The notes under the pieces: model-generated
Told to the model about the DNA's origin: nothing
Databases searched by the model: none
What the model saw: the letters and a program-made list of their open reading frames with translations, nothing else
Origin: Psammoneis japonica
Taxonomy: Eukaryota
Assembly: GCA_008632985.1 (NCBI GenBank)
Contig: QPGO01000077.1
Location: forward strand, 357,694-377,693
DNA: 20,000 bases
Direction: 5' to 3'
Shown: piece after piece, positions 1 to 20,000 of the stretch
How positions within the stretch are numbered: position 1 is the first letter of the stretch
Layout of the letters: each line of letters starts with the position of its first letter
Made by a program: the position numbers and the translations under genes

Positions 1-208
1 AAAGATCAGTTTTGGTTTTGATGCCATTTTGGATTTTGCCATTTATATTAGTCTAGTTTTTAGGACGTTCTGAGTTGCAAGTGTTGCGTCGTTGTGTAAG
101 TTGCATTCACATTATCGAAAAAGAGACCGCCGGAGGAATTGATCGTATTAACATAGGCACGGTTGCTTCGTTGTAGAGTCAAGAGAAGAATCGAAACGAT
201 ACAGAAAA

Positions 209-756
209 ATGGACAATCTCGCACCAGCGCAACTCGACCCGAGCGAAATCCCGGAAGGATTTACCGCGGCTTCAGCGGGAGGCGATAATGAAAAGCAGGC
301 CGAGACACAGAGCCGTGAAGCACAAAAGCAAGCCATCTTGGAACAAGCTCTTACACCGGAGGCTCTTGAAAGGCTAAGACGAATCAAGGTGAGTCTGGTG
401 GCTATTGCAAAACAAGTATCTGTGTCGCATCGCGTGTTGTGTATGTAATGTGATGCTTGTCAGCATATTCAATATTTTTGTAAGTCACCTCACGAAGCGA
501 CGTATTGTTTGTGATTTCCCTCTTGTCTTTTGCTAAGCTCGTGAAAGTCGACAAAGCAAACAAAATCGAATCCATGATTGTAGCAATGGCCATGCAGGGA
601 AAGCTACCAGGGAGAATCAACGAGGGAAAATTAATTGAAATGTTGGAGGGATTGGGAGCCCAGCAGGGTGCAACTGGTGAAAACAAAATATCGATTCAAC
701 GAAAGAAATACGCATTCGATTCCGACGACGATGATGATGACGACGATTTGCTGTAA
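209..756 (+). CDS. PDCD5: Programmed cell death protein 5 (PDCD5/TFAR19 family), 2 exons
   Basis: Exons 209-388 and 538-756; intron 389-537 (GTGAGT...TAAG, phase 0). The spliced protein reads ...ILEQALTPEALERLRRIK|LVKVDKANKIESMIVAMAMQGKLPGRINEGKLIEMLE...KISIQRKK...DDDDD, matching the PDCD5 consensus with its acidic tail. Confidence 0.92.
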
Positions 757-976
757 GCTGCCGGAAACAACTCGCTTTCTGCAACCGCGCAGCGGAAGAA
801 TGAGGCTTTTGTCTAGCACGAGTGTGTTATCAAATATGCATTGGAAAAAGTATTCAAATTTTCGTTTGTTCCTTCATCTCTTTTTCTGCAATGATGGCAT
901 TAATATCTTAGCTTCTTTAGGTTGTTTTCGGGACGCACTCCGGCTTGCACTTTGTATGCCTGCTTGGTCATTACAG

Positions 977-1657
977 TTACACCGCTGCATTGGCGCTCAC
1001 CGGTTCGACGCGAAGTTGACCTACGGGAATTTCCTCGTAGATATCAACAGTTGCTCCGCCAAATGGATCTGCTTTGACAGTCTCCATTTCCCGTACATTC
1101 AGAGTTGCTCCCTTCAATGACACTTCTCCGCTGTCCTTGTCACGAACATGAGTTATTTGAGCGAACAGTTTAAGCGGCTTTACGGAATCGTTATCTTCCC
1201 CAGGAAGTGCAACACTGCCGGTTTCCAGCTGGAGTAGCATATATGGGTAGAGAGGTTCCTGGAATAGCCCCCAAATCCACAGCCCGTCCTTGCGGTCTTC
1301 TGGATCTTCTGACAGTTTCCAAAACCCGTTTGTGATTGTCAGCGTTTTTGAAGCGCCACTTTCGCCAGTTTGATCAGCAGCCACCTGACGCACATTGCCT
1401 TGTGGTGGTTCGTAACCTTCGTCTTCCAAAAACTGGGCTTCCACAACAAAGAGCTGGTCGACCTTTTTACCGAGTTCTGTTGGGATACCATTCAACGAAA
1501 AGGAGAGTTTCCAGGTAGTCTCGTCCGTCAGCGTAGCCTTGGCCGATAAAGGTGTTGTCGAGAAGGCTCTAGACTGCGTGGGAACTTGCGGAGTGGTAAA
1601 CCCATATACTGAGCTTGCTGTCGACAGCACCAACAGAATGACGAGAAACGATAGCAT
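977..1657 (-). CDS. Protein of unknown function, probably plastid-targeted (226 aa, bipartite presequence)
   Basis: ATG at 1657 opens a hydrophobic signal peptide (MLSFLVILLVLSTASSVYG), followed by F at +1 and a Ser/Thr-rich, acid-free transit-like stretch (FTTPQVPTQSRAFSTTPLSA), an ASAFAP-type arrangement. The body looks globular (FWKLSEDPEDRKDGLWIWGLFQEPLYP). The ORF extension to 1831 starts at a non-ATG codon and was not accepted. Confidence 0.75.
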   Translation of the reverse strand: MLSFLVILLVLSTASSVYGFTTPQVPTQSRAFSTTPLSAKATLTDETTWKLSFSLNGIPTELGKKVDQLFVVEAQFLEDEGYEPPQGNVRQVAADQTGESGASKTLTITNGFWKLSEDPEDRKDGLWIWGLFQEPLYPYMLLQLETGSVALPGEDNDSVKPLKLFAQITHVRDKDSGEVSLKGATLNVREMETVKADPFGGATVDIYEEIPVGQLRVEPVSANAAV

Positions 1658-2149
1658 TTGTCTAAAAAGTTCGAGATGCTTTTTCAGACCAGTTGAACAC
1701 CAAACAAAACACCGCGTTTCCAAAGCAACCGCTAACGTTTCTGCCAACAGCTGTCGCCGGTTTCCAGTGCTCGCCAATGAGATGTAGGAAATGAAAGTCC
1801 TTATTCTGTAGTTGAACGAATGCGGCAACATAAGAGGTGAGCTGACGAGCGAGCGCGAGTTCAGAGTGATGAAAAGTTGTGAGTCAGTCGCGGGAGAGAT
1901 GGATGAAGATAACCCGGAAGGTACGTTACTTTGTCCCCAAGTTGCGTAGAACTTGGTACGTTTCTACCTGGGTCGTGGGTTTTGGTCGCGTGAGTTCGAT
2001 GATGGCGGGGCGGGAGTGATGAGTGATGTTGATGTCAAAAAGCAAAACGCGAAGAGGCAGAACAACACACATGTCAAAACGTGAACATGACAAGGCAGAA
2101 TACTCAACTGCTGTCAGCGCTCACGAGTATGTAGGACTGTCAACTTTCT

Positions 2150-4522
2150 ATGATGAGCACGAATAATATTGAAAAACCAGGTGATCCTCGATTGGGCAGC
2201 TTGCTGCATGAGGGGCTGAACGGTGACATTGTTTTTGTACTCTGGCCGTGTGATGAGGTATGCTAGAACGTTGCTCCGTTTGATGCGACTTGGTCTACCG
2301 TGCATAGATCCTAATCATTCATTGTGAATTGCGATGTATTTTATTTACAGGGTGTCAAGCGAAACGGGGGACGACTTGGTGCGGCAGGAGCGCCTGCGAG
2401 GTTTCTACAGTTTCTTAAAAGCATGGGAACTATCCATAATCCGGAGTATGACATCGATTTGTCATCCATTGAATTGTCGTATTATTTTGTCAACCTAAAA
2501 GATCTGGATTTTGACAAGGACAAAGGTGCATTGGACAAAGCGCACGATCGTCTAACGGAGATAGTATCCAAAGTGCTCGATTCGGGAGGAGTTCCCTTTT
2601 GTATCGGTGGAGGCAACGACCAATCATTTGCAAACTGGAGAGCTTGAGGCAGTCAGTGGCAAAAGGCTCCCGAATAGGAGTTGTGAACGTCGACGCTCAC
2701 TTGGATGTTCGGCCACTTGCCAATGGACAGCCTCATTCGGGTACGCCGTTTCGGCAAATTCTGGACTACGACGCCGCAGCCAGAGACGGGACAACAGTCT
2801 TGTGTGAATTCGCAGCTCAAGGCAGTCAGTGTAGCAAGGCCATGCGAACTATGTAACTTGCAGGGGAGGCTCGATAATGTGGTTGAGTCAAGTACGAACC
2901 GTCGCCATGTCCCACTTTAAAGATGTTTTGGCACGCCATCATGCCTCTGGCATAGACCATGAGTTCGTGTCATTCGACTTGGACGCGATCAAAGCTTCTG
3001 ACTGCCCCGGTGTCTCGTGCCCATCCAACACCGGTCTCACGGCAGAGGACGCAATAGGAATCATGAGAATGGCGGGGGAGGCAAGGCATGTAAAACTTGT
3101 GGACATGTCGGAAATGAATCCAAAGATTGAGGACTACATTACCCCTCGCCTTGCCGTGCAAATGGCGTATTCTTTTATTCTTGGCTACACGAAGCGCGAC
3201 CGCGAATCAGTTCCTTTGAAAGACCGACACTTGAGCATTCCGCATCGTCGGGCTTTTCGCCTTCGTATTTCCCACCTGAGTCAGTTAGTTTGCGTCGAAG
3301 ATGTTCAGAAACAGGGTTTCCGAACGGGCGAGCATATGAGGATACTCAACATTGTCGAGGATGGCACGATTCTTGTGGATCGGAATGGCCGCATTGCTTA
3401 TGCTGGTCCAGCCGAGGATGCTCCTGATGTTGACAAGGACGAAGTCGAACAGGAAATTGATGGAGAAGGCAAATCAGCCATACCTGGACTCTGTGATGGA
3501 CATACACATTCCTGTTGGGCTGGTGATAGAGTGAATGAATTTTCGATGAAGCTAGCGGGCGCCACTTACATGGATATTCACAAGAAAGGCGGGGGCATAG
3601 GCTTCACTGTCAAACACACCCAACAAACTGACGAAGCGAGCTTGTACACAAGTCTGATAGAGCGACTAGATGACATGAATAAGACTGGTACGACACTTGT
3701 GGAATGCAAAGCGGTTACGGGCTCGATGTTACGACTGAGCTAAAAATGCTGCGAGTAATTGATAAGGCTCATCACAATCTGGGGCACGTAGACGTTGTTG
3801 GGAATTTCTGTGGTGCGCACTCGATTCTACAAGGAATGACGGAGGAAGAAGCCTTGGATTGCGTAATAAACAAAATGATCCCGGCTTTGACTGAGGAGAA
3901 GAAACATGGTAGAATGGCCTCGACAAGGCTAATTGACGTGTTTGCAGAAGATGGGGTATTTAGCAACTCGTCGACAAAAGCTATTCTCGAAGCTGGAGCA
4001 CGAATTGGATTGCTCGGCAATTTTCACGGTGATGAACTCACGTATCAAGCATGCGGCGAACTGGCTGGAAAATTGAGGTGCCGCGCAGTGAGCCACCTAG
4101 AGCATGTCAGCGATGAAGGAATTTCAGCAATGGCAGAAAGCCATACGGCAGCTATACTTCTACCCACTACGGCCTATGTGCTAAGGATGAAGCCACCCCC
4201 TGCCCGTAAACTTATCGACAACGGGGTTCCCGTTGCTCTCGGCTCAGACTTCAATCCAAACGCCCACTGCTCATCCATGGCTCACGTGATGAATCTTGCA
4301 TGCGTCACGATGCATTTGTGTGTTGAAGAAGCCCTTGTTGCCAGCACGCTTAACGCAGCATACTCAATGGGCATGCAAGAGAGTCACGGCAGTTTGGAAG
4401 TCGGCAAGCACGGCGACATTGTACTTGTAAATGCTCGACGATGGGAGCACATCATTTATCAATTCGGTGGCATCCCGCCTTTGTTCGCCGTGATCAAAGA
4501 CGGAATCGTAAGACGTTTGTAA
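2150..4522 (+). CDS. hutG-hutI: Bifunctional formimidoylglutamase (HutG, arginase family) - imidazolonepropionase (HutI, amidohydrolase) fusion, ~760 aa after correcting three 1-bp frameshifts
   Basis: Exon 1 2150(or 2153)-2257 (GDPRLG...WPCDE), intron 2258-2350 (GTATGC...TTACAG), exon 2 2351-4522. HutG motifs: [52 protein letters not shown]. The same open frame (2877-3743) continues into HutI motifs PGLCDGHTH and [18 protein letters not shown]; after the third frameshift come ECKSGYGL, CGAH, FHGDEL, SHLE and ALGSDFNP. Frameshifts at ~2644, ~2840 and ~3710 could be assembly errors or pseudogenisation. Confidence 0.9.
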
Positions 4523-4561
4523 ATCCGTGTTATGCTGAGAGTTCTAGTTTACTTTGTGAGA

Positions 4562-7500
4562 TTAAAGGTGCTTCATTGGCATGTTAATGCTGTGCTTTCT
4601 CGCCGTTTCTTCTGCTTCTTCGTACCCAGCATCGACGTGGCGCATGACACCGGTAGCAGGGTCGCCTTGCAAGACTCGTCTCAAGCGCAACTCTGCTTCT
4701 TGTGTCCCATCAGCGACAATAACTTGTCCAGCATGAATAGATTTGCCAATGCCGACCCCACCTCCATGATGTATTGAAACCCAAGTTGCACCATTCACCG
4801 AATTTATCATGGCATTGAGCAGCGGCCAGTCAGCAATAGCGTCGGAACCGTCCTTCATACTTTCAGTTTCTCTGTTTGGCGAAGCGACAGAGCCGCAATC
4901 AAGGTGATCTCTCCCTATCACGATCGGTGCTGAGATTTTACCTTGGGCTACAAGTTGGTTGATGCGTACTCCAAACGCTTCTCGTTCGCCCATACCAAGC
5001 CAACAGATTCGACAAGGAAGCCCTTGGAATTGAACTTTTTCTTGAGCTTGATCAATCCAACGTCGAAGAGGTTCGTCATTAGGAAATAGCTCCTTCACAG
5101 CCTCGTCAGTCACCGCAATATCCCTTGGATCTCCTGATAAAGCAACCCACCGAAAGGGCCCACGACCACGACAGAACTGAGGACGAATGAAGAGGGGTAC
5201 AAATCCTTGAAACGAGAAAGCTTTTTCATAGCCACCTGCTTTCGCCTGACCACGAATATTGTTTCCATAGTCAAATACTACGGATCCCTTTTCTTTGAAG
5301 CCGACCATTGATCTAACTTGCTCCACCATTGACATGATCGACCGCTTTTTGTAGTCCTCGGGGTCGGACTTTCGAAGTCGAAGTGCCTCTGGGTAGCGCA
5401 TTCCATTTGGCACGTATCCGTTTAGTTCGTCGTGGGCAGAGGTTTGATCAGTCTAAACAGTTGCCACACGAGGACAGAGTTGAGGGCAATCGTTCCGCAG
5501 TAATGCATGAGAATCCTCAAAGGATGGGACTTACCACCACGTCGGGGATGATACCTCTTGCAAGTAGCGCGGGGAACACGTCTGCGGCGTTGGCGACAAC
5601 CCCGACAGACAAAGGAGTGTTGTTTGCCACTGCCTCTTGACACCACGAAATTGCTTCGTCTAGAGTCTCAGTGAGGCGATCCAAATACCGCGTCCTGATT
5701 CTGCGCTGGGCTCGATCCTTGTCTACTTCGACGCAGAGAGCCACGCCGCCGTTCATAGTGATAGCAAGTGGCTGAGCACCTATGGAATGAATGAATACGA
5801 AAATGTTGAGATCTGCCCGTGAAGAAAAAATGACGACACACAAAACAATTTGTAAGTTAGTCTACGAACCTCCCATTCCCCCGAGCCCTCCTGTGAGTAC
5901 CAGCCTACCAGCGAGAGTTCCATCGTAATGCTGCCTGGCTAATTCTGCAAGAGTCTCAAAGGTCCCCTGAAGAATTCCTTGGCTTCCGATATAAATCCAT
6001 GAACCAGCAGTCATTTGGCCATACATGATTAACCCTTTCGCTTCGAGTTCGCGGAAGTAATCCCAGGTCGCCCACGATGGGACAAGGTTGGAGTTTGCTA
6101 TTAGGACTCGTGGAGCATCACGGTGGCTTCGAACGACACCCACCGGCTTTCCAGACTGTACCAATAAAGTTTCATCATCCTCGAGCTCCGTTAGCACCTT
6201 TAGGATCGCGGTCAACGCTTCGTGGTTCCGTGCAGCCTTGCCGGTGCCTCCATACACAACAAGGTGGTCAGGGTCCTCTGCCACATCTGGGTCCAGGTTG
6301 TTCAAAAGCATGCGATACGCAGCCTCTTGTTGCCATCCTTTGCAGTGCATTGTCTTTTTGGGAGCCACCGTCCCGCCATTTATCTCGCTCTGACTTGCGG
6401 CATTAAGAGCGCATTGTACCGTCTTGGAGAGAATCCCGCTTCGCACTAGACGAGCCGCGGCCGCCATGTGCGGTGCCATCTCCACATCTTCTGGAAGAAA
6501 CGGAATGTTTGAGCGAACGAGATCATGTGCTGCGGATGTACCTCTCCCCATTTTGGCGTTACTACCAAGCTCTCGACGCCGATACTCGACACCTTGTGCT
6601 GCAGCCAACAATTCGATTCCCAGAATATTCTCAAGGTTTCGGAGGATACGTCTAGCTTGTCGAACCGAGATGGGACCATTGGACACGTGATCTTCCACGT
6701 TTGCTGAAGTGGGGAGGCTGTCGGCACTAGCAGGGAAACAAAGTGCCTTGTTTTCACTGGCCAGCGCTGCCGAAGTGTACTGTGTAAGCATAAACCCCGA
6801 ATTCAAGCCACCCTTTTCTGTCAGAAATGGAGGTAGAATACCATTATTGCTCGCCGGATCGGTAAGGCGATTCAGTCTCCGTTCCGAGATGTTTCCTATT
6901 TCAGTCATTGCGAGCGAGAGATCATCAAAGGTGAGTGCTAGGGGTTCCCCATGAAAGTTCCCACCGCTCTTGGCAACAGCGGATCCATCGTCTTGGAAAA
7001 AGATGAGCGGGTTGTCCGTAACACTGTTCAATTCAATGCTCAAAATCCGTCTCGCATTTTGAAAGGCGTCAGCACAAGCTCCGTGCACCTGCGGCATGCA
7101 TCGAAGCGAGTACGCGTCCTGAGGATCTTCTCCGAGATCGGAACGAACAAACGTGGATCCTTCCAATAGCGCTCGCAGCTCCCTTGCCGTTTCAATCTGA
7201 CTCGGGTGCGGACGAACCTTTTGAATGTCGGGATCAAGGGCTGCCGCGGTTCCGTATAACGCCTCCAACGACAACGCACCGGTAATGTTGGCCACGTGCG
7301 CACAATTCTCGGCTTCCACAATCGCTAAGCACCCCAACGCTGCCATCATGGCTGTACCGTTTGTCAATGCCAAACCTTCTTTTGCTTCCAACTCAACTGG
7401 TTTTAATTCTACTTTTGCCAATGCCTCGGCGCCAGCAAGGACTTTTCCGTCAACCACAGCTTTTCCTTCACCAATCATGACCAGCGACATGTGAGCCAAC

Positions 7501-7955
7501 GGAGCAAGGTCGCCACTCGCACCCAATGATCCTTGTCGGGGCACAATGGGATGAACCCTCCGTTCAATCATGTTTAGCAATAGTTCAAGAGTTGTCAGTC
7601 GTATACCAGAATACCCCGAAGCCAACGTGTTTGCCCGAATGAGCATCATGGCACGAACGGCGTCGGCTTCGAGAGGCTTGCCAACTCCGGCAGCATGAGA
7701 TCGAACAATGTTGCGTTGCAATTCTTTCAAATCAGCCTTTTCGATCAAGGTCTTTCGGAATGCTCCAAATCCTGTAGTGACACCATAGACCGTCTTGTTT
7801 TCGTTTACCATTTCTTGTACGGCCTCTGCACTCTTGTTGACCGCCTCAATCGCATCTCTTGACAGTCGCAACTTTACCGTCTCTTGTTCTGCTTTTGCAA
7901 TCGCCACCACATTTTCAATTGTCAGTTGATGTCCATCAATTGTTAGTTCCAACAT
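4562..7955 (-). CDS. hutH-hutU: Bifunctional histidine ammonia-lyase (HutH) - urocanate hydratase (HutU) fusion, 1073 aa, 3 exons
   Basis: Exons 7955-5870, 5779-5535 and 5452-4562; introns 5869-5780 (GTTCGT...CATAG) and 5534-5453 (GTAAGT...TTTAG). Splicing restores GGMG|GAQPLA and [12 protein letters not shown]. HutH motifs: VYGVTTGFG, the HAL-type RSHAAGVG, the MIO-forming [11 protein letters not shown] (7512-7520), [19 protein letters not shown]. After a short linker (~6351-6410) HutU begins: [77 protein letters not shown]. Confidence 0.96.
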
Positions 7956-8360
7956 TTTCTATTGTTTGATTGGAAGAAATGGGACTTGATGTGATGATGG
8001 CGGTGTCAGAATTTTTTGTCATTTTGGATTTTGCGACCCCAAAAAAAAATGAGAAGCGAATGCTCACGGATGACGGGCAGAACAGAGAGTTTCGGTGGTG
8101 TTCCCAAATTGTTTCCACGTTTGAGATTCCGGATTCCGATGAAAAGCTGAGGCAATGACGTGTTGAGTACTACAAAAAACGTATGATCTACATACGAGTT
8201 TCGCTGGTACTGATACCACGTAGCATCCGCCCACTTTTGGCCTCTTTCCAGCGCCTTCGACAAAGACAGAGCGTTTCACGGCCGTGCCGTTCTTGTGTTT
8301 TGTTTGGGCAATTGTTTTGATTTGTGAGCGAGCCAACGACGCCCGAGATTGACATCCATC

Positions 8361-11300
8361 ATGTCGAACGAAGTGGTAGAGAATGGTAAACAAAACGGAG
8401 AAGCAGCGGCGGCGGTTCAGCCAATACTAGGCATGGAGGGAACTCCCGCTGAAGCTCCTGCTCAGTCAAAACCCAAACCTACTTTTGCTCGTTCCGACAC
8501 AGCAGACACGTTGGAATCTTCGGAAGATGTGGACGAAGAAGAAGCGCTGCTTGTTTCCATCGAAAAGCAACAGGAAAAAGAAGACGCAGAGGAAGCGGCA
8601 CACCCACACCCTCAACCCAAAGACATTGCATCTGCACCGAAATTGCTGCAGGACATGCTGAAAAAGGGAGAAGTAAAGGCGGACGAGTCAGAAGAAGAGT
8701 CAGAAAAGGAAGAGAAAGCGTCGAAAGAGGCCGCAGTAGCGAAAAAAGGAACTGAAGAAGAGAAAAAGGGCGAGGAAGGGGAGGCACCTCCGTCTCCCGT
8801 GCGACACTACCATACGAGGGTAGGTGGTATCTTTTGTCATTGTTTTGGATCCATATGTCGTGCTCGAAAGGTTGCAGTGCTTTGTTTGGTGCTGTATTGT
8901 GCTCAGACAGGTCTTAATGAGACAAGTTGAGGGTATACAGTGAGAATGTCGAAGAAGCGGTTCTCCTGCGCTGTTTTTCGATTTTCCCGCTTTTTTTTGT
9001 TCCCTCACGTCTCGCCCACGCGTCTTTCTTACGATTTTTAAATTTCCCTCTTGTACACAGAGAAGTCAACTGGACGAGCTACTCAAAAAGGCTTCTCAGT
9101 ACTCTGGTTTCATCTCCAGAGACTTGGAAGAGCTTCAAGAGTCCTTGACGCAAACCGCAAAGAAAAAAGTAAAGTCAGCCGAAAAGAGCAGAAAGCGCAA
9201 GGCAAAGGCCGGGGGCTCTTCCAAGAAGAAATCGAAAAAGAATGACGGTGAGGCTGCTCTCAAGTCTGCGCAAGAGAAGCACGCCTCCGAAATGCTTCAT
9301 GCAGGTTCGAAACCGATCTTTGTCCAGCCACCCAACTTGGCTGCCGGCTGTGTCCTCAAGGACTATCAGCTGGAGGGTGTGCGCTGGCTCACCTCCTTGT
9401 TTGAGAACGGCGTATCTGGTATCCTTGCGGATGAAATGGGACTCGGTAAGAGAAGTTGGCCCAATTTCACCTACAGCGGATATTATTGTTTTGCGCAAGA
9501 GTGAATGAGTTGCTAACAAACGTCTCTTTTCTGTTCCACTACTGCTGCTATTTTTCATTAGGAAAAACTATCCAGGTTATTGCATTGATTGCGCATCTCT
9601 TGACCAAGAACGTTGCGGGGCCGTTTCTCATTGTTGCTCCTCTTGCTACCCTTCCTAATTGGGTGCGCGAGTTCCAGAAATGGCTTCCGCAGAGACCCGT
9701 TCTACGCTATCACGGCAGTGCTACCGACCGCGATGCTATGCTCAAGGGCATGATGCATCCAAAGCAACGAAAGCTCCCGACCTTTCCCTTTATTGTGACC
9801 TCGTACGAAGTAGCCATTCGAGATCAGTCCAAGCTGGAAAAGTTGAACGAATACACCTATCTCATTGTCGACGAAGGGCAGCGCCTCAAGAATCACCGTT
9901 GTACGCTGCTTGCGTCGCTAAAGCGGCTCAAGGCGAATAACCGTTTGTTGCTCAGCGGAACCCCCATCCAGAACAACTTGGACGAATTGTGGAGTCTTCT
10001 CAACTTTGTAAATCCCGATATCTTTGACGACCTTAAGGTTTTCCAGAGTTGGTTTGGTTTCAAGGATATTGGACAGATTGACAAGGGAGGTACTAAAGAA
10101 GAGGCAATCATGATGGAACAGCGCAAGAACGACACTGTCTCCAAGCTTCACGAGATTCTTCGTCCGTTCCTTCTACGACGCATCAAGAGCAATGTGCTCT
10201 CCGAGTTGCCTCCAAAGAAGGAGGTTGTGGTTTACTCGGGCATGTCCAAGTTGCAGTCCGGGTATGCGGATCTTATTGAGAAGGGTGTTCTGAGGGATAC
10301 CCTCATTAGCCAAGGTATCGAACAGGGTCGTACATTGAGCCAGACAAACAAGCAGATGAATCACCGCAAGAATGTCAACCACCCCTTTTTGTTCGGAGAA
10401 CCCATTGACCCGGCCACTGGAGCGCACCTTGGAACCGCCCACCCGCAGCTTCTCGTCCGTGCCAGCGGCAAGTTTGCTCTGCTTGATCGAATGCTTGATC
10501 GGTTGCACCGTGACAAGCACCAAGTTCTTATCTTCAGCCAAATGACATCGCTGCTGAATGTAATTGAAGACTACTTGCTCTATAGGAAGTGGAGGTACTG
10601 CCGCATTGACGGTTCAACCAACATTGATGACCGTCAGAGTCAGATGGACAGGTTTAACGCGGAGCAGACGGCAGGCAAGGACGGAACTAGGAATGATAGC
10701 GATGACCGCTGTTTTGTGTTTTTGCTCAGCACCAGGGCTGGTGGTCTCGGAATCAACTTGGTAAGTCATCATGGTTGGGAGCTTTATGCATTCAGCTGCT
10801 CTAGAATGGAGAGTCTCTCACCTCGTTACCATATGTCTGTTGACTGAAGGCAACGGCCGATACGTGCATCATTTTTGATAGGTACGTCGAGATTGTACAG
10901 TACTCCATTGACAGTTGACCAGACGTTTTCTTGTTCTCTCAACTCTTTCTATTGTTGTCCTTTCTTCTTCCTGCGACAGCGACTGGAATCCGCACCAGGA
11001 TTCGCAGGCAATGGACAGGTGCCATCGAATTGGCCAGACTCGCCCAGTTGCAGTGTATCGCCTACTCACAGCGGGTTCTGTCGACATTGAAATGATGGAG
11101 AAGCAGATCTCGAAAAAGAAGCTCGAGCGCATGACCATCACGGGAGGCGACTTTAGAAAGGCAGGCAGCCGCTCGGTTGGAGAAAAGATCTCGTCCAACG
11201 AGCTGAACAAGCTCTTGGAAGACGATATTAAGGATATTCACGCCAAGGGGGCGGATATTGAAAGTATCAAGATCAACGAAGACGAGTTCGATATGATTAT

Positions 11301-11412
11301 GGATCGTGAGAAGTTGTTCGCGACGGGTGCGGATGCCATCAAGACCGAGGGCAAAATGTACGATGTTCTAGACGCTGCCAGCGGGGACCTTCTCGGAGGT
11401 GTGAATGCTTGA
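8361..11412 (+). CDS. HELLS: SNF2-family chromatin remodelling ATPase, LSH/HELLS/DDM1-like (~835 aa, 5 exons)
   Basis: Exons 8361-8819, 9061-9445, 9562-10760, 10850-10881 and 10980-11412; all introns are GT-AG with consistent phases. Motifs: [16 protein letters not shown] (DDM1-like N-terminal helix), [122 protein letters not shown]. No bromo, chromo or SANT domain is visible. Confidence 0.88.
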
Positions 11413-11503
11413 GTGATGATGCGATGAGCGCCTTGAGTTGGGTGCATCGGTTTTGTTATGAAGTTCGTGGAAAAGAGTTATTAGAGATGACACCGTCTTC
11501 TTG

Positions 11504-12185
11504 AAGAGACAGTGGACGACTCTCACCGACCACGATACAAGTAAAGTAGACTTATGGTATTTTGATCCTTTTGCTTGCACGAATTGTGATCAGTATAGAA
11601 TATCTAGCTGTGCAACACTAAAATTGACTATCAAAGTTCTTCATTCGAATACACAGCACCTCCCCCGTTCGTTCCCTCTGGAGGATGGCTTATGAGCAGT
11701 TCATCATACGTCCCTTGTCGTGCATCTTCCGTCTCTTCAATCGTTACATGATCTGGCTCGTGCCCGTTCAAGTACCTGCTCCAAACAAGCTCGAGTCCAG
11801 TCTGAAAGTTCTTGACATATCGCGGAACGTCCCAATAGGGGTGCAAGAGACAGTGGACGACTCTCACCGACCACGATACAAGTAAAGTAGACTTATGGTA
11901 TTTTGATCCTTTTGCTTGCACGAATTGTGATCAGTATAGAATATCTAGCTGTGCAACACTAAAATTGACTATCAAAGTTCTTCATTCGAATACACAGCAC
12001 CTCCCCCGTTCGTTCCCTCTGGAGGATGGCTTATGAGCAGTTCATCATACGTCCCTTGTCGTGCATCTTCCGTCTCTTCAATCGTTACATGATCTGGCTC
12101 GTGCCCGTTCAAGTACCTGCTCCAAACAAGCTCGAGTCCAGTCTGAAAGTTCTTGACATATCGCGGAACGTCCCAATAGGGGTGC
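11504..12185. repeat. Direct tandem duplication, 2 x 341 bp (11504-11844 and 11845-12185)
   Basis: The sequence starting AAGAGACAGTGGACGAC and ending CCAATAGGGGTGC occurs twice head-to-tail and looks identical by eye. The ORF track shows the same ...YSNEEL terminus at 11631 and 11972 (offset 341). Confidence 0.97.
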
Positions 12186-14458
12186 ATGGGGTTTCGCTGT
12201 AGACACGAGTCGATGAGTTTCTTTCGGATTGACTCGAGCATGGTTGCATTCTTCCCGAGAGCAATGGCAATGTCTTCGTATTGTTGTGGTCCATTGTACG
12301 CATTCAATTCTTCAAGTCCCAAAACCATGTTGGACGACGTTGTGACACGAGAGCACATGTCATCACCGTCACTACGAGTCACAATGGGCACACCGGCATA
12401 CAAGGAATCTTGAGCGACAGTGTGGCCATTGTATGGGTACGAGTCGAGCATGACATTGCAAAAGTCGTGATTCCTCATTTGATGGTCAAATGGGTTTCGT
12501 TGCCACGGGAGAAAATGTATGCGAGAATTCAATTCGTTTCCGTCTCCTTCCACAAAGCTGTCTTCATCGTTATTGTTTTCGGACGTACCCGCAGCCTCGT
12601 GAATAAATTTGCGGAGATATGGTACGCCCTCTTTGGGATTTTCCAAGAGACAAATCATGCTGTCGGGAACTTCTCTCAGGATTCGAATCCAACTCCGGAC
12701 AGTTTCAGGATTATTCTTGAGGAACTTGTTGAAATTGCAGTAGACAATGGATGGCTTCTCGGGACCCACCCCTGGCTTTGCCATGCATCGATTCGCTTGT
12801 GGACTGCCAGTCCCCAACTTGTACGGAGTCTCTGCTGGGGTATAGTCAAAAGTCGGTGCTTTCACCTCGTCCTGAATAGCGTGGCCTTTTGAAAAAAAGT
12901 GATTCGGCATGTAGATAAACTTCTCCGTGTACAAGTTCTCTAGTTCTGGAGGAGACGCAATCTTGTCTGTAAAAATGTAATCCAGATACTGAGCACCATA
13001 AGTGCCGAGAAACTCTTGGTGCAAGATTTGTATAGGCGCCGGTCGCAGAGCAAACAGTCCCTGCGCTCGCTCACCCTGACGAGCATAGCCATCCCATTCA
13101 ATCAAAATGTGGATCCCAGTATCGTGGATCCTTCGTGCCAAGGCCACATGATCAAGCTTGAGTTTTTGCACATCGTGAAAGTAGTCCACGTTGGACTTGA
13201 CTCGCTCTCTCCAATCCACTCCCCGCATTCCGTGTTGAATAAACACGGGCGAATCGGCTGGACCCATGGAGAAAATATGAACCTCATACTTGTTCTTGTC
13301 AAAAAATCGAAACATGTCGTGCGACAAGTACAAGACCGCCTTGGAATTAAAGCCGGATGCGACAAAACCAATCTTGAGCTTAAAGTCGGGCTTTTGCGCC
13401 TCACGAAAGAATCGTTTGAAATCCGCGTCATTGTCATTGCCGTAGGGAAGTCCAGGTGGCAGGGGCTTTAATTTCATGGTTTCCTGATCGATTCTGGCCA
13501 GCTTTTCATCCAGATACGCCGTACCCTCGGTTACGTAACGTTTCAGAATGGATTCAATCGGATAGCCCAGCATCATGTGTGGGTGAGTCGAGGTGCCCCG
13601 TTCCCAATGAAAGGTGCCTAATTTTTTGTTCACTGTTCGATACTCGGCTACTTCCTCTTTGGCAATTCGTACAATACGCTCCATGTCTTGATCAAACTGT
13701 GTCCCGTTGAAACCCCAATCAATAATCATGGTTCGGCAATAGACAGCATTCGAACACGAGGGATAGAGTTTTTGGCCCGATTTGAGACAACTCAATTCAA
13801 ACACATCAGCACAATCTTCGTATTTGCGGTCACTGAAAAATTTGCTTCCCAAGGCGTACAATTCTTCCGGCGTCATGTTTTCAATTTCGCGACTGGCGGA
13901 CGGCTTGTTTTTTGATGAGGTTGTTGTGGTTGTTTGACTCGGAGACGCATCTTTCTTTGTAAGTTCGTCAAGACCAAGTGTCTGTTGGAGCAGCAGTGCG
14001 TCTGGATGATTCGGATCGACAGCCAGAGCTTGTTTCAGATACATTTTACCCATATCCATTTGACCTCTCCCGACACTCTCGGTTGCAACATAGACAAAGG
14101 CATCCGCCATTTTATCCTGAACAGCAAAACACTGAACAAAGGGTTGAAAGGCTTGCTCCACACTGTATGCATTTCCAGATGACGCATGCATCAGAACGGC
14201 ACGCCAATAGTGCATGGCAGCTCTGTCATACTCTTTTAATCCAAAGAGTCGCTGACCCTCTGCGAGATTGGCCTTGCCATCGGTGTTTGGCACGGTCGTT
14301 TCAAAATTCAATTCCACGACGGAATTGACAGAAGCAAAGATCGAGACACATAGCATAAGAAATATTATTAGTTTTGAATGCAGCCGCCTCTGTGGTTGTC
14401 GGCTCAAGCAAAGCGACGCCATGTCGGAAAGCGGCAAAGGAGACATCCGTCTCATCAT
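11972..14458 (-). CDS. TPR-containing glycosyltransferase family 41 (OGT/SEC/SPY-like) protein with N-terminal signal peptide/anchor
   Basis: Single 828-aa ORF. TPR-like helices (ANLAEGQRLFGLKEYDRAAMHYWRA; YLKQALAVDPNHPDA). GT41 motifs: HPHM, LKIGFVASGF, IHDTGIHILIEWDGY, LFALRPAPIQI, LDYIFTD, YTEKFIYMP, YCNFNKFLK, DSYPYNGHT...DSLYAGVPIVT, SRVTTS. The exact start Met (1, 2, 5 or 13) is uncertain. Confidence 0.88.
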   Translation of the reverse strand: MMRRMSPLPLSDMASLCLSRQPQRRLHSKLIIFLMLCVSIFASVNSVVELNFETTVPNTDGKANLAEGQRLFGLKEYDRAAMHYWRAVLMHASSGNAYSVEQAFQPFVQCFAVQDKMADAFVYVATESVGRGQMDMGKMYLKQALAVDPNHPDALLLQQTLGLDELTKKDASPSQTTTTTSSKNKPSASREIENMTPEELYALGSKFFSDRKYEDCADVFELSCLKSGQKLYPSCSNAVYCRTMIIDWGFNGTQFDQDMERIVRIAKEEVAEYRTVNKKLGTFHWERGTSTHPHMMLGYPIESILKRYVTEGTAYLDEKLARIDQETMKLKPLPPGLPYGNDNDADFKRFFREAQKPDFKLKIGFVASGFNSKAVLYLSHDMFRFFDKNKYEVHIFSMGPADSPVFIQHGMRGVDWRERVKSNVDYFHDVQKLKLDHVALARRIHDTGIHILIEWDGYARQGERAQGLFALRPAPIQILHQEFLGTYGAQYLDYIFTDKIASPPELENLYTEKFIYMPNHFFSKGHAIQDEVKAPTFDYTPAETPYKLGTGSPQANRCMAKPGVGPEKPSIVYCNFNKFLKNNPETVRSWIRILREVPDSMICLLENPKEGVPYLRKFIHEAAGTSENNNDEDSFVEGDGNELNSRIHFLPWQRNPFDHQMRNHDFCNVMLDSYPYNGHTVAQDSLYAGVPIVTRSDGDDMCSRVTTSSNMVLGLEELNAYNGPQQYEDIAIALGKNATMLESIRKKLIDSCLQRNPMHPYWDVPRYVKNFQTGLELVWSRYLNGHEPDHVTIEETEDARQGTYDELLISHPPEGTNGGGAVYSNEEL

Positions 14459-14708
14459 TGTTTGCGAAATTTTTGATGGATGTCTACTCGTCTCAAAATG
14501 TCTCGCGCGATCATTTGCATTGCGCGCTCATCGAAGCAGTCTGTCTGCTTGCCAGCCGTCTATCTCTCACCGCAACCATCGATGCGTCAACCAATGGCTG
14601 TTTGGCGGTTGTGCTTTTTGCTCACTTTCTCCGGCTCGCTCCTCGTTTTGCAGCAATCGTTGCATCGACAAGCAGCTTAGACCTTAAACGTCGTAAATCA
14701 ACATCACG

Positions 14709-16097
14709 ATGAAGGTTAAGGCTCTCTCTCGTTCGATTGCGTCCACAGAACGAGAATGTTCCGGTGATTTACGCCGTCAATTTCGAAATCTAGATCCAAC
14801 GTCCCATCCCATGCAACGCGCTCGAGAGTACACTCGCGCCGTCACGGGTGCCAAATTGGAACGCATGTTTGCCAAGCCATTCGTGGGGACGCTGGGAGAG
14901 GGACACATGGATGCTGTCACAGCGTCGGCCACGTCACGTCGTGCCTTGGTGCCGCTTGTGAGTGGATCGGCCGATGGGGAGATTCGATTGTGGGATTTGG
15001 CGAGCCGCAAACGAGTGGCGACACTGACGGGAGAACATTCGCGTGTCGTGACGGGGCTTGTGTTTGGATTGGACGGGCAAGAATTTTATAGTTGTAGTGA
15101 TGATGGGCTTGTCAAGTTGTGGACAACGAATGCTAGAGCAACTAGCGGCAATAGTATCGCTGACGCTGCTGCTTCCTCTCAACATGGTCCGTTGGAAACG
15201 TGGAGAACACCGGGATCGTTTAAATCGATTGATCATCACTGGCACGAGGAGCAGTTTGCGACTGCTTCTGATGAAAGCGTCAATATTTGGAGTCCTGAAC
15301 GGAGCTCGCCTATTCAACGACACGTTGATTTGTGGGGAAGCCACGACACTGTAAATGTTGTGCGATACAATCCAGCCGAGCGAAACTTGTTGGCCCACTG
15401 TTCTGCCGATCGTGGCATTGGATTGCATGATGTCCGAGCAGGAGCCGCACTCAAAAAGACTGTGCTTCAAATGAGATCCAACTGTTTGGAATGGAATCCC
15501 ATGGAACCAATGAACTTTGTGGTGGGAAACGAAGACTACAATGCTTATACCTTTGATATGCGAAAGCTCGATCAACCAACACGAATCTACAAGGGCCACA
15601 TGAGTGCCGTCATGAGCGTGGGATGGTCTCCAACAGGACGTGAGTTTGTGACTGGCAGTTATGACAGGACGATTCGCATATTTTCCACAAAGGGCGGAGG
15701 TACGGCTCGGGATATTTACCACACGAAACGTATGCAACGTGTCTTTACGGTTCATTACACGGCAGATCACAAGTACATTGTTTCAGGAAGTGACGACACA
15801 AACTTGCGACTCTGGAAGGCAACCGCATCAGACCAGATTGGACAATTAACATCTCGAGAGGAGGCTGCACTGCGATACCGCCAGACCTTGGTGAAAAAGT
15901 ATCAACACTTGCCCGAAGTCAAGCGTATTAGCAAATCCCGCAAAATTCCCAAAATTATCAAGAAACAGACCGCCATTGTTCAAATACAAAAGGCAAGCTC
16001 GGATCGAAAACAATCCAATCGTATCAAGCATTCCAAGCCGGGGACGGTTGAGTTTCAAAGCGAGCGAAAGAAAACTGTTGTCAAGCAAGTGGATTGA
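14709..16097 (+). CDS. DCAF13: DDB1- and CUL4-associated factor 13 / Sof1 (WD40 SSU-processome protein)
   Basis: 462-aa ORF: MKVKALSRS, RNLDPTSHPMQRAREYTRAVTGAKLERMFAKPF, WD40 repeats, WNPMEPMNFVVGNED, SPTGREFVTGSYDRTIRIF, YHTKRMQRVF, SGSDDTNLRLWKA and a basic Sof1 tail. Confidence 0.96.
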   Translation: MKVKALSRSIASTERECSGDLRRQFRNLDPTSHPMQRAREYTRAVTGAKLERMFAKPFVGTLGEGHMDAVTASATSRRALVPLVSGSADGEIRLWDLASRKRVATLTGEHSRVVTGLVFGLDGQEFYSCSDDGLVKLWTTNARATSGNSIADAAASSQHGPLETWRTPGSFKSIDHHWHEEQFATASDESVNIWSPERSSPIQRHVDLWGSHDTVNVVRYNPAERNLLAHCSADRGIGLHDVRAGAALKKTVLQMRSNCLEWNPMEPMNFVVGNEDYNAYTFDMRKLDQPTRIYKGHMSAVMSVGWSPTGREFVTGSYDRTIRIFSTKGGGTARDIYHTKRMQRVFTVHYTADHKYIVSGSDDTNLRLWKATASDQIGQLTSREEAALRYRQTLVKKYQHLPEVKRISKSRKIPKIIKKQTAIVQIQKASSDRKQSNRIKHSKPGTVEFQSERKKTVVKQVD

Positions 16098-16101
16098 AAC
16101 A

Positions 16102-16119
16102 TGTGTGTGTGTGTGTGTG
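16102..16119. repeat. (TG)9 microsatellite
   Basis: TGTGTGTGTGTGTGTGTG starting just after the DCAF13 stop codon. Confidence 0.9.
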
Positions 16120-16798
16120 CGTGTTTCGCATTTTCGAGTATGTATTTCAAAGAGTAAATCATAATGCACTCTCGGTATTCTAAGAGTATTGTTAGGAAAT
16201 TGGTTTGTAAACGAAGGAATCGCAGGCAAGCACAAAGCAAGCACGCAATCGCATGCATGCCTGTACCTATGCATCGTGCGTACTGTACAAAACAATATAC
16301 AGCACAAATTCCTGATACAGCCATGGTGTGAGAAGCAAGAGTACACCTAAAGGCTTGGAATTTGCCTCCGTAGGGTTCAAAGGGTGTCCCACACGTCGTT
16401 GGGAATGACTGCTGTGGCCATATTATTTGGTGCAGTGCTGCTGTTCTTCAAAAAGGTTTTGTACCGTTAACAAATATTGATACCGGTAAGTCTAGTGAAG
16501 ATCAACGTCGGAAAAGACGGCTTTGGCCGAGGGCCGCCGCTAGTAGATATCTATATATTACACCAAATGCCTATCTCCTAAGGTTCCATGTAAATGAATG
16601 CCAACAATGTCTTCTTCTGTTCCTTGTCGCAAAATATGGATGCGTGAAACATGTACCGATACTGTGTTCTTCTCTCTTCTTCTTTGGGATCCTTGCTAAT
16701 TTGTGCATGTATGTACTTGCCGTCTTTTACGCTTCTTGCTCCTCACGAACATAGTCCTTCGTCTGCGACTATTGCCAGTCCCTGGATCATTCTATCTC

Positions 16799-17299
16799 TT
16801 ATTCCCTGCTCCAGTTGTCTTTGCTTGGATTGCCGTGGCCACACGTCTCTGCAACAATCAGATCGCCAACTGATGCAGTTTGGCCCTGCCACACAAGGCA
16901 CATGTCGGTGTCAATCACCCTAATGACGATACCATCGTACTCGAGCTTCTGGAGAGGATTGGATGAGTCGCACTCCTGGAGACGGACCGTCTTTCCCTCT
17001 TCTAGAGGCCATGAAAGACCGGCCTGGATGCAGTAATCGTCGTCGAGTTCACTCTCAAACAGGCCATTACTACGCATCCGGAACCCGGTACATCCTGTTC
17101 CCAGGGCGAGCTTGGGTCTGCAGTTGCACACCGATGCCTGAACGCCGAGGCAGAGACCATCGGCATCATCGTTTCCGAAGTGTGTGTAGGAAGAACCTAA
17201 TTTCCGTAAACCACCATGCGTGTCGTCGAGCACTTTCCATCCACCTTGGACAAGAGGAATGGCGACAAGCGAGAATAACGCATGCACGGAGAGCTTCAT
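16799..17299 (-). CDS. Small secreted Cys-containing protein, ricin-B (beta-trefoil) lectin-like, 166 aa
   Basis: ATG at 17299; signal peptide MKLSVHALFSLVAIPLVQG; LRKL motif; three subdomains with the ricin-B-like pattern C-hydrophobic...C (GLCLGV..GTGC; DYCIQA..VRLQECDSSNPLQKL; DMCLVW..IVAETC..DNW). Confidence 0.7.
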   Translation of the reverse strand: MKLSVHALFSLVAIPLVQGGWKVLDDTHGGLRKLGSSYTHFGNDDADGLCLGVQASVCNCRPKLALGTGCTGFRMRSNGLFESELDDDYCIQAGLSWPLEEGKTVRLQECDSSNPLQKLEYDGIVIRVIDTDMCLVWQGQTASVGDLIVAETCGHGNPSKDNWSRE

Positions 17300-17608
17300 C
17301 GTTGTTACAGTGAAAAGATGTTGTTTGTCGATTGATTGAGATGCTTCAATATATGAGTTGGAAAAATGACATTCATTTTTTTGGAAGCCCATCACTGCAA
17401 GTCTCCGCTCTGCTCGCAGAAAGAGACATTCTTACATATGACACGATTGATTTGTTATGCGAGCCTTTCCAAGGCAATATAATCGGGGGCCCTTGCGATT
17501 CGGGGTCGCGCTTTCGGTCGGATGCGTCTATTGAGAACATCAATCGTGTCGCTTGAAAGGTCCTTCTCCGCGATGCTGAATCGTGAAAGAAAGTTCTTAC
17601 GATTGGAT

Positions 17609-20000
17609 TGTTATGGGGCCTTACATAAAGGGCAAGTCCTTCATGATTCACTTCGCGCTTTCACAATTAACAGAGTCGCGGTTTCATGGAGGCGGTTCAA
17701 GATGATTCTCTTCACAGTTTGAGTTCGCAGTGCAGTGTTCACAGTCGAGACCGAAGATGAGAGAACCTTCTGCATTTGTCGCGGAACATGACTCAAGCGG
17801 GACTCAAGTGATTGGGTCCCGGTCACGATTGAAGGATCACGCGGCAGACGACCACAGAAATCGGAGCCGACCATGAATGCCGCAATCGATCTTGAGGAAC
17901 AAGATCAATGAATCGAGTGGATGAGGAGCGACGATTTGACAAGATCGGTTTGGTGAGATTGATTTGGTAGGATTGATTTGGTAGGATTGATTTGACAAGA
18001 TTGAAGTCCAGCAGAAGAAGTGGAAAGGTGGATCGCAAATCATTGACGAGAGTGAGAAAAAGTGAAGGCTGTTTGCTTTGGTTTTGTGCACTCTTCAGCA
18101 GCATCAGCATCTGGTTGTCCAACATGATGTGTGTTGACATTTTGTGGCAACAGCGCATCCAAGAGCAGTGAGTGTGAGAAGCGATGAGAGCAAGGAAAAA
18201 GAGACCTGCGAGACTTCTCCTTTGTCGTGGAGCGAAGAGAGCACACTTCGAGAATGTTTTTGGTGAAAATCGAGCTGTGCAAGAGTGACTGCGGTTGTGA
18301 CAAAGCAGCCAATGTGGACCTGGGAGACAAGCTTCTTGCAAAGGTGGAATGCACAAGCAGAAAGAAGAAAGCAATGCAAGTTGATGGTGCAGAGACCCTG
18401 GAGGATCTTGGCAAGGAGGGCAAGAGAGATTGCACAAGCTGAGAGCACAAAATCTTTTGCCAAGATGATCCGAGCATTGCCTGAAAACTTGATCCAGGAC
18501 AGCAAGAACCAAGGTGGACCAAAGAAGTCTGTGTGTTGGATCAAGGAGTGCCTCAAGGAGCACTGCTTGGAGCAACATGCAGTGGATGATTGCCAGAACC
18601 TCTGTCAGAGGAGGTGTTGGTGCTAGAACCAGGTGAGTTCGAGGACGAAGCGCTGCTCCATTTCAACAAGTTGGAAGACGTTGACTCCAAGTTGGGAGCA
18701 ATTGATGACAAGTGTTGCTTGAATGAACTTCAGTTGAAGACTGACATCTGCACAAAAGTCCTGGATGACAACAAGCAGAGTTCTTTCAAGTTTGAGTGTT
18801 GCAAGGACGGCACGATGGAGAAAAGCGGGAGTGGGGCACTCATGGTCCACCAGGAGGATCTGCTGAGTCCACAAATTGATCTTCTGGAGTGGACAAGACC
18901 CTGGCTGTGAAGGTGCAGGGCAGCAAATTTTGCCCTGGCAACTGTGGGAAGTGCAGCCAGAAAGGTCACAAAGCCAACTTTTGTCCAAACAAGAACAACA
19001 AGAAGTCAAAGAAGTTTGATGGTGACTGCTGCAATTGTGGCAAGCACAGACACAGGGCAAGTGACTGCTGCAAGAAGAAGATGGATGAGAAAGAGGAAGA
19101 CAAGGAGATGGACAAAGTCACACTCACAGTGTTTGACTCAGTTCACTTGGTTGAGGAGGGCAAGAACCCTGTTCCTGATTCTTTCTTTGACACCTTCAAC
19201 ACCAAGCCTGCAGCAGTTCAAGAGGGAACTTAAGAGATTGGACAAATGGAATGAATCACCTTGTTGACCTGGTGTGAATGGAACAAAATGACAGACAATG
19301 AGGACAAAGAAGACAACAATGGCATGAGTGTGCCAGAGCCAGAAGTTCCTTTTGTGTTTCCGACAAGGACAAGGATGAAAGTGTCCCACCCTTGGTTTGC
19401 CAATGTGATTCCAACAGCAACACAGACAGCATCAAATTGATTGACATGAGCTCTGTGGTCCTTTCCAAGAGTTTGAGAACAAGGATTTGGACAGAGAGGA
19501 TGGTGAGTGGACAGCATCCCACCTCTGATCTGCCATTGTGACTTAGATTCTTCATCAGACGATTCTGAGTTTAAGCACGATGCGGACAATGAAGACAAGA
19601 TGACATTGATGTCTGGTGTGCAACATGAGCCAGAATGCAGTGGGCTGGTGTTTAGCTCCTGCTGGACTCTGGGTCAACAGCACTTGCCAAGAGGTCTCCT
19701 CAAGGGATGAGGAACCTCAATGAGGTCAACAAGGTTGTGAAGGACATGCATGATGGCAGTTGGCAGCAAAGCTTCAGGGAGATTTGCCACTCACATGCTG
19801 GAAAGGGAATGGTGCAGTGGCTGTTGCTGAGATGCACGTCCAGCCAAATGTCCCCACAACATTGTGAGCCTGATGAATCTGTTTGAGACTAATTGCATCC
19901 TCAGCCCCAAGACAGACCCCAAACAAGCCATTGTTCTTGAGTGCCCTGATGGCATGGAACAAATTTTTGAAAAATCTGCAAAAAGATGGGCTGTTTTGTG
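17609..20000 (+). mobile_element. Degenerate Ty1/Copia LTR retrotransposon (gag with two zinc knuckles and protease remnant), truncated by the window end; left boundary approximate
   Basis: Two CX2CX4HX4C knuckles (CGKCSQKGHKANFC 18943-18984; CCNCGKHRHRASDC 19027-19068). Copia-type protease LLLDSGST...GMRNL...HDGS (DSG at 19665-19673), followed by VQPNV.../NIVSLMNL. There are many stops and frameshifts, and dinucleotide composition shifts sharply near 17650. Confidence 0.82.
17929..18004. repeat. Imperfect 14-bp tandem repeat, ~5.5 units (consensus GATTGATTTGRYRR)
   Basis: Units: CGACGATTTGACAA, GATCGGTTTGGTGA, GATTGATTTGGTAG, GATTGATTTGGTAG, GATTGATTTGACAA, GATTGA. Confidence 0.85.

Follow-up and report, generated by a model that had tools for sequence, protein, structure and literature searches.

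We analysed a stretch of 20,000 nucleotides (nt) of DNA, referred to below as the window, in which the sequence from about 17.7 kb to the end reads as the leader, the gag gene and the start of the protease of a decayed Ty1/copia long terminal repeat (LTR) retrotransposon on the + strand. This element has lost almost all of its TpA dinucleotides. The explanation that we favour, and regard as probable, is that a TpA-specific mutator converting A:T to G:C, of the kind described for Bigelowiella natans, has mutated a silenced copy almost to saturation on either strand, and that the body of the element also underwent CpG decay of the methylation type. The original prediction for this DNA had called such a process uncharacterised, which is outdated by a preprint of 2026 that describes A/T to G/C hypermutation, at TpA only, of giant-virus and virophage sequences integrated in the genome of B. 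natans (Mettrop et al., bioRxiv 10.64898/2026.01.13.699255; statements on this and the other cited sources refer to portions of their text). The kind of process is already known; new are the saturated TpA purge in a further, diatom-like host lineage and its occurrence on a retrotransposon.

Between positions 18001 and 20000, the body of the element, TpA occurs only at 18624, 19231, 19544, 19572, 19653 and 19890, exactly the six sites that had been listed before. At the rate of the flank, for which positions 1-17600 served as the compositional reference, 68.6 would be expected (Poisson P(<=6) = 2.5e-22). Mononucleotide shuffling of the same sequence (2000 shuffles) gave a mean of 134 TpA and a minimum of 106, and the poorest of 157 2-kb windows in the flank holds 43. 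TpA-free runs of 642, 607, 313 and 300 nt, the four longest in the window, are all found from 17668 onwards, and the longest elsewhere measures 258 nt; the four TpA cited as a sign of normal neighbouring DNA in 17581-17640 are present at 17598, 17612, 17622 and 17626. The observed/expected ratio (o/e) of TA is 0.04 in the body and 0.52 in the flank, while that of TG rises from 1.17 to 1.77 and that of CA from 1.18 to 1.63 (222 TG and 191 CA, together 413 such steps), in line with the abundance of both noted before. No TAC or TAT triplet remains, also as noted (TAY 0, TAR 6; Y, pyrimidine; R, purine). AA, AT and TT (o/e 1.06, 0.73 and 1.33) stay near their flank values; these are dinucleotide ratios, not counts of substitutions. 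The body as a whole has a Rho_TpA of 0.04, a Rho_CpA+TpG of 1.70 and a Rho_CpG of 0.21. Both full 1-kb windows of the element (Rho_TpA/Rho_CpA+TpG of 0.02/1.66 and 0.07/1.75) pass the thresholds applied to B. natans (Rho_TpA <= 0.43, Rho_CpA+TpG >= 1.52), which none of the 17 flank windows does; the rule that a cluster comprises three or more such windows is out of reach here, since only two fit before the window ends.

The earlier reading of the composition stands for the TpA loss and the TG/CA excess, but it missed a strong loss of CpG that feeds this excess. The body retains 23 CpG versus 118.5 expected (o/e 0.21, compared with 1.00 in the flank), and part of the CpA+TpG gain is a product of CpG decay. 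The two losses differ in their distribution: CpG o/e falls inward, from 0.32 in 18001-19000 to 0.09 in 19001-20000, whereas the TpA loss is uniform, and the TpA-poor zone reaches further upstream, to 17669, some 300 nt ahead of the drop in CpG. The stretch 17669-17967 has no TpA (10.3 expected, P = 3.5e-5) and a normal CpG content (22 versus 17.7 expected). Because this stretch lost TpA and kept CpG, the two processes are separable, and a single enzyme for both losses was rejected as the simplest reading. About 80% of the CpG of the body would have decayed to TpG or CpA, as from 5-methylcytosine deamination in a methylated transposon, with 17669-17967 left untouched. CpG methylation has been reported for a diatom copia element (PMC2806351). 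Like 5-methylcytosine decay, the pattern combines CpG loss with TG/CA gain and is limited to the transposon; unlike it, the pattern includes a TpA loss beyond the reach of that process, which extends into the region where CpG loss is absent. A related element on a metagenome contig of 8028 nt (L006) has a CpG o/e of 0.10-0.28 over its second half and a normal TpA o/e of 0.5-0.7, which shows that relatives can undergo CpG decay and keep their TpA.

Two further features of the composition were observed. Stop codons in 18001-20000 are nearly all TGA (71 in the + strand frames, 29 in the - strand frames), because TAA and TAG are almost gone. The element also contains long spurious open reading frames (ORFs) on the - strand, such as 17823-18578 (251 amino acids), which a gene caller could take for genes.

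Sequence comparisons support the view, already held by the original prediction, that the TpA-free state is derived and mutational and not the composition of the family. A metagenome scan with an alignment of four proteins found by phmmer yielded 23 related loci, on which it was checked whether related copies are equally TpA-free. None of the 23 comes near: their whole-locus TA o/e ranges from 0.47 to 0.97, and no 1-kb window in any of them falls below 0.35. The closest full relative, L001, is an ORF of 1586 amino acids on a metagenome contig. Its 11 Tyr residues that align to the window are all replaced, four by Cys, one by His and six by other residues, whereas three intact relatives retain 14 of 33, with none changed to Cys and one to His. 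Phe of L001 reads Cys at 4 of 19 positions in the window and at 0 of 68 in the intact relatives; the window cases probably arose via Tyr, because Phe to Tyr is common in the intact relatives (14/68). Overall, the window has no Tyr and 24 Cys in 420 in-frame residues, compared with 11 Tyr and 13 Cys in 435 residues of L001. The motif EYRK of P0004, P0003 and L001 (KYRE in P0017) is ECCK in the window and thus shows TA to TG and CG to TG side by side, the latter as an Arg to Cys change at 18800 (codon now TGC). In a second conserved motif the K-Y of the relatives is K-C in the window. The zinc-knuckle Tyr that had been offered as an example is ambiguous, since all five close relatives have Phe there, but the underlying claim that conserved Tyr positions read Cys or His holds at other sites.

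Nucleotide comparisons point the same way. Sister copies in a public sequencing run are 82-84% alike to the window element. In local alignments with the ends of their contigs, sites that are CA or TG in the window read TA or CG in the sister copies (CATAAC versus CACAAC, GACGAA versus GATGAA), although polarity from single pairs of sister copies is ambiguous. Among the tandem units at the start of the body, two have TA where the others have TG or CA. Outside TA and CG the divergence looks modest, and gag is as close to its relatives as these are to each other. One sister copy shows TG/CA where the window keeps CpG (17813-17841).

Since TpA is its own complement, one activity on the A (or the T) of 5'-TA-3' on either strand gives both TpG and CpA. 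Both products are found in the aromatic codons, the tandem units and the sister copies, which bears out the proposed action on both strands. The codons at aromatic positions comprise eight TGY and two CAY, or five to one where both outcomes are open (RTAY sites), and a TA of a sister copy faces CA in the window at two places and TG at one. A sense-strand bias towards A to G (5:1; 222 TG versus 191 CA) is possible and not significant. All six TpA that survive in the body lie in the context YTAR (CTAG, TTAA, TTAG, TTAA, TTAG and CTAA), which accounts for 0.17 of TpA in the flank and 0.23 in the 23 related loci (P(6/6) = 2e-5 to 1.4e-4); new TpA arising from the present CA/TG steps would be YTAR about one quarter of the time, as computed by hand from a 4-mer table. 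The sparing of YTAR suggests T-A-Y (R-T-A on the other strand) as the target, which we treat as a lead. A T-A-Y target would also predict more Cys than His from Tyr codons. A comparison by hand of two conversion models against the 4-mer frequencies of L001 favoured TAY; it is rough and was not counted as evidence.

In the mechanism that we propose, a TpA-specific A:T to G:C process would have removed more than 90% of TpA and left TpG or CpA in its place. Every Tyr codon would have been lost in this way (TAY to TGY, Cys, or to CAY, His), so that the proteins of the element would have been killed. The process probably acts on the integrated, silenced copy. Its chemistry is probably enzymatic, either by an adenine deaminase similar to ADAT2 or TadA or by thymine oxidation at TpA; the two chemistries give the same products because TpA is self-complementary.

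Several points weigh against this interpretation or some of its parts. The evidence comes from one locus of 2.3 kb, and polarity is based on protein relatives at 25-62% identity and on a few sister-contig ends of 24-37 nt. The assignment of the host to the diatoms is based on one protein. No element boundary, partner LTR or primer-binding site was established within the window, in which one end only could lie. The excess of Cys over His (8:2 overall, 5:1 at open sites) would, as a sense-strand bias, also fit RNA editing. The YTAR/TAY idea is based on six sites; the two survivors in the context GTAG (17968 and 17982) and two of the three sister-copy TA sites do not follow a strict TAY rule. Compared with the L001 ORF, the contexts of the products were not significantly different (TGY share 0.42 versus 0.37, P = 0.25; RCA 0.66 versus 0.62, P = 0.39), and this test was significant only against the flank, a poor control in which coding and non-coding strands are mixed. 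Finally, the B. natans preprint is unreviewed and, in its text as cited here, reports no effect on CpG.

Among the alternatives, a copy that arrived already hypermutated deserves attention, although we consider it unlikely. A host adenine deaminase would have edited the genomic RNA (A to G in the sense orientation), the minus-strand cDNA (T to C in the sense orientation) or both before integration. The preponderance of Cys over His and of TG over CA would agree with this, as would the apparent confinement of the purge to the element and the single-haplotype depth of the copy (70, compared with about 60 for the flank). Both product types occur, however, and a loss of more than 90% of sites in one passage would be extreme, while a copy so damaged could not cycle again alone. 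Diatoms are also not known to have ADAR. Integrated single-copy DNA of B. natans acquires this signature de novo during clonal growth (10.64898/2026.01.13.699255). RNA hyperediting of the ADAR type, with A to G on one strand and a loose 5' preference, was rejected as a candidate in view of the T to C products, the undepleted AA and the diatom-like host. Equally improbable in our estimate is a slow, chromatin-linked bias without a dedicated defence, in which mutation would be the by-product of a base modification that labels silent DNA at TpA, such as 5-hydroxymethyluracil (5hmU) or 5-formyluracil from a TET/JBP enzyme, or a modified adenine, and would bring an old copy to equilibrium. The CpG decay in the same copy shows modification-driven mutation at work. 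The insertion may indeed be old, because a contig of the other flank haplotype, which differs by 26 positions and indels, runs on into 17669-17780. For the dinoflagellate Crypthecodinium cohnii, a preference of 5hmU for thymines in TA and TC has been described, and silenced transposons carry 5hmU as a mark (PMC11572971). Against such a bias stand the modest divergence outside TA and CG, with sister copies 82-84% alike, and the requirement that TpA decay far outpace the formation of new TpA from 413 CA/TG steps; 5hmU would also have to cause T to C changes. Diatoms are not known to have a modified thymine: a literature search on 5hmU listed no diatom paper, and PMC11572971 never mentions diatoms.

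Much less credit is due to the two remaining explanations. Avoidance of CpG and UpA with an excess of UpG and CpA is a known pattern of many RNA viruses and retroviruses, and the host DNA itself has a TA o/e of only 0.52, so a family under selection against UpA and CpG in its RNA, without any abnormal mutation, can be imagined. A working polyprotein would need Tyr, however, and this copy has none, together with six in-frame stops and at least three frame changes; the related loci keep TpA in every 1-kb window, and the sister copies carry TA and CG at corresponding places. An intrinsic composition is already contradicted by these sequences and is highly improbable. The least probable case is an artefact of assembly, contamination or sequencing, which might be suspected since the window ends inside the element and no contig among those listed bridges 17666-17876. 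An independent k-mer assembly of the public run nevertheless reproduces 17877-19983 with one other letter and two gaps, at a depth of 70 compared with about 60 per haplotype in the flank. This excludes an assembly error but leaves room for a library artefact, because the run may be the source of the assembly itself.

A TpA mutator acting in place is best compared with the process in B. natans, for which 15 mutation-accumulation lines were sequenced. There, 231 of 302 nuclear point mutations fell in one region of a nucleocytoplasmic large DNA virus (NCLDV) and one virophage region; 230 of these 231 were A to G or T to C, and the authors place all of them on TpA. The rate was about 1000 times the background, only some of the lines were hit, and the targets were integrated single-copy DNA during clonal growth. 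The genome of B. natans contains 124 clusters of TpA-poor, CpA+TpG-rich windows, and reverse-transcriptase and DDE domains are over-represented among its low-TpA coding sequences. As a candidate enzyme, not assayed, the authors proposed an ADAT2-like deaminase and cited DNA activity for the ADAT2 of amphioxus and trypanosomes (all from 10.64898/2026.01.13.699255). Both systems share the conversion of TpA to TpG or CpA, the TpA depletion with a gain in CpA+TpG, and the restriction of the purge to foreign or mobile DNA beside normal host DNA. They differ in that B. natans is a chlorarachniophyte (Rhizaria), whereas the host here is diatom-like (a stramenopile) and the target is a copia retrotransposon, and in that the process is near saturation here, with a Rho_TpA of 0.04 compared with 0.45 in the NCLDV region of B. 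natans. The heavy CpG loss and the sparing of YTAR have no counterpart in the main text of the preprint, in which diatoms, CpG loss and flanking-base context are not mentioned. A full-text literature search returned no other report of TpA-directed hypermutation besides this preprint, and none for diatoms.

Repeat-induced point mutation (RIP) and editing by APOBEC or ADAR are the textbook examples of a host that destroys invaders by mutation. Like RIP in Neurospora and other fungi, the pattern consists of transitions on both strands of mobile or repeated DNA in a dinucleotide context, with destroyed reading frames. Its direction is the reverse, as the original prediction had recognised, since RIP turns CpA into TpA: the element has a TpA/ApT of 0.06 and a (CpA+TpG)/(ApC+GpT) of 1.81, far from the values by which RIP is recognised (>= 0.89 and <= 1.03, respectively; PMC7884421). 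The likeness to ADAR and APOBEC3 editing in animals lies in clustered transitions that inactivate retroelements. These enzymes act before integration and on one strand, whereas T to C products are found here too, and APOBEC edits C, not A. To our knowledge, the ADAR family is confined to animals. ADAR prefers U 5' of the edited A (Discussion of 10.64898/2026.01.13.699255) and is not strictly limited to UA, whereas AA is undepleted in the element.

TadA, ADAT2-ADAT3 and the base editors derived from them convert A to inosine at an A that follows U or T, although their natural substrate is the anticodon loop of tRNA. For an engineered TadA variant, editing of A within 'YAC' has been described (PMC13109818), a context that resembles the T-A-Y target inferred here. 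The 5hmU of C. cohnii is a thymine modification with a preference for TA and TC, and 5hmU is linked to transposon silencing in another lineage of the stramenopiles, alveolates and Rhizaria (SAR), with no mutational consequence reported in the portion of PMC11572971 cited. Tentatively, and with clearly less confidence than we place in the mutator itself, it can be conjectured that TpA hypermutation is a genome defence across SAR lineages including diatoms, which would purge retrotransposons of all TpA and Tyr codons beside, but independently of, CpG methylation; it might recognise T-A-Y on either strand and leave YTAR immune, which would fit a TadA/ADAT2-like DNA adenine deaminase.

Saturation on a retrotransposon of a diatom-like genome suggests a process that predates a single lineage and reaches beyond it, and its effect on a coding element, the loss of every Tyr codon, is visible here. 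Two handles towards the enzyme come from the YTAR survivors and from the fact that the TpA loss can be separated from CpG decay. The spread of TpA defence among marine protists becomes a question for a simple genome-wide dinucleotide scan. Purged elements also escape domain-based annotation, as the blank Pfam result for the window element illustrates, and distort composition-based analyses.

The identification of the stretch as a retrotransposon, also part of the original prediction, is borne out by the copia polyprotein L001, which matches the window by tblastn in four collinear pieces (18236-18850, 18826-19311, 19656-19742 and 19778-19849) with a joint E of 2.6e-26. On L001 itself, Pfam finds RVT_2 at residues 1068-1319, SH3_retrovirus at 842-907, Pol_BBD at 463-542 and zf-CCHC. 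The matching pieces occupy three different frames, with at least three frame changes in the element, and the 420 codons aligned to L001 contain five TGA and one TAA stop in frame. A phmmer search with one read-through frame against 1.84 billion representatives returned 18 proteins at E <= 1e-3, each of them aligned in the knuckle region; Pfam was run on eight of them and found zf-CCHC in seven, and in addition Pol_BBD in P0009 (above the cut-off) and P0004 (below it, 21 versus 27 bits). Alignment with the gag-protease proteins P0004 and P0017 extends along gag and resumes at LLLDSGS; the LLLDSGST of the window aligns within the Pol_BBD match of L001, and the two zinc knuckles align to those of P0002, P0004, P0017, L001 and L002.

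On the window itself, Pfam found no element family in nine + strand ORFs and one - strand ORF of the element (only a chance-level CBAH, E 0.21 at a cut-off of E 1), nor in three read-through frames with X at the stops, where zf-CCHC remained unscored. A word-indexed protein search with a 114-amino-acid ORF and with region 300-676 of a 676-amino-acid read-through frame, restricted by length band, gave no match, and a profile scan of viral contigs with the gag alignment gave no relative. The stretch upstream of gag that is TpA-free and CpG-normal may be the LTR or the 5' leader. The sole TpA between 17669 and 18623 sit in the two GGTAGG units of the tandem array; a tRNA-type primer-binding site in these TGGTAGG repeats was considered and found unsupported on inspection by eye. 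The features of the element and of the neighbouring DNA are listed in the following table.

Table. Positions of the retrotransposon parts and of neighbouring genes in the window.
Feature	Position	Strand	Basis or remark
Putative arginase-family ORF	2877-3743	+	Overlaps amidohydrolase ORF
Putative amidohydrolase ORF	3704-4522	+	
Predicted histidine ammonia-lyase domain fused to urocanase	5862-7955, on in 4562-5413	-	Gap between the parts probably an intron
Predicted ricin-type beta-trefoil lectin gene	16799-17395	-	Pfam Ricin_B_lectin, E 8e-8
TpA-free, CpG-normal stretch, repeated in the genome	17669-17967		Upstream of gag
Five 14-nt tandem units	17933-18002	+	Cores GACAAG, GGTGAG, GGTAGG, GGTAGG, GACAAG
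Purge core	18001-20000		Continues past window end
Predicted gag, N-terminal part, decayed	18236-18850	+	tblastn, L001 residues 22-225; three in-frame TGA
Six surviving TpA	18624-19891		
TGT TGC codons, ECCK motif	18797-18802	+	Alignment of relatives
Predicted gag, C-terminal part	18826-19311	+	Frame differs from N-terminal part; tblastn, L001 residues 228-405, P0004, P0002, L002; E 1e-18 to 1e-26
Two predicted CCHC zinc knuckles, C-x2-C-x4-H-x4-C	18943-18984, 19027-19068	+	Spacing read from ORF
Predicted aspartic protease / Pol beta-barrel start, including LLLDSGST (19656)	19656-19849	+	Two frames; tblastn, L001 462-490 (62% identity) and 503-526, P0004 555-618
Probable continuation of protease region (DARPAKCPHNIVSL...)	19831-19998	+	Further frame; by eye versus P0004 (...THVIPEFMNDIVSLPRL...); no separate high-scoring pair; cut by window end

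Among sequencing runs, one DNA data set, from a single study, contains this sequence, and no RNA data set was listed. In the comparison of the window with contigs of the run, 40 of about 238 differing places were visible, nearly all of them in the flank. Summed contig depth reaches 315-622 in 17707-18009 and 270 in 18111-18211, and lies at 70-160 over gag, compared with about 60 per haplotype in the flank; copies of the leader therefore far outnumber those of the coding part in the genome. This repetition would fit solo LTRs or another repeat family. A scan of genome contigs with a 37-nt stretch of the repeated region gave no matches.

By its sequence, the host looks like a diatom. All nine matches with an organism name among the 120 listed for the Sof1 ORF of the flank are from diatoms (genera Nitzschia, Mayamaea, Trieres, Chaetoceros, Fistulifera and Cylindrotheca), at 64-68% identity, and unnamed environmental sequences reach 84%. 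The flank carries intron-poor eukaryotic genes, comprising a SNF2 helicase, a GT41 transferase, Sof1/DCAF13, a ricin-type lectin, the histidine ammonia-lyase-urocanase fusion and the arginase-family and amidohydrolase ORFs. All four steps of histidine degradation are apparently encoded within about 5 kb (2877-7955). Eukaryotes do not usually have a catabolic pathway that is clustered and partly fused in this way.

The lectin gene looks secreted and adjoins the transposon. A second haplotype of the flank was seen over 17000-17718, with the 26 differing positions and the indels lying in 345 nt of 17321-17665. In run X1 the depth per flank haplotype is about 57-62, and in run X2 from the same sample only the other haplotype is found, at a depth of 208, over the lectin gene and its upstream region. 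If X2 is RNA, this would mean allele-specific expression beside the transposon.

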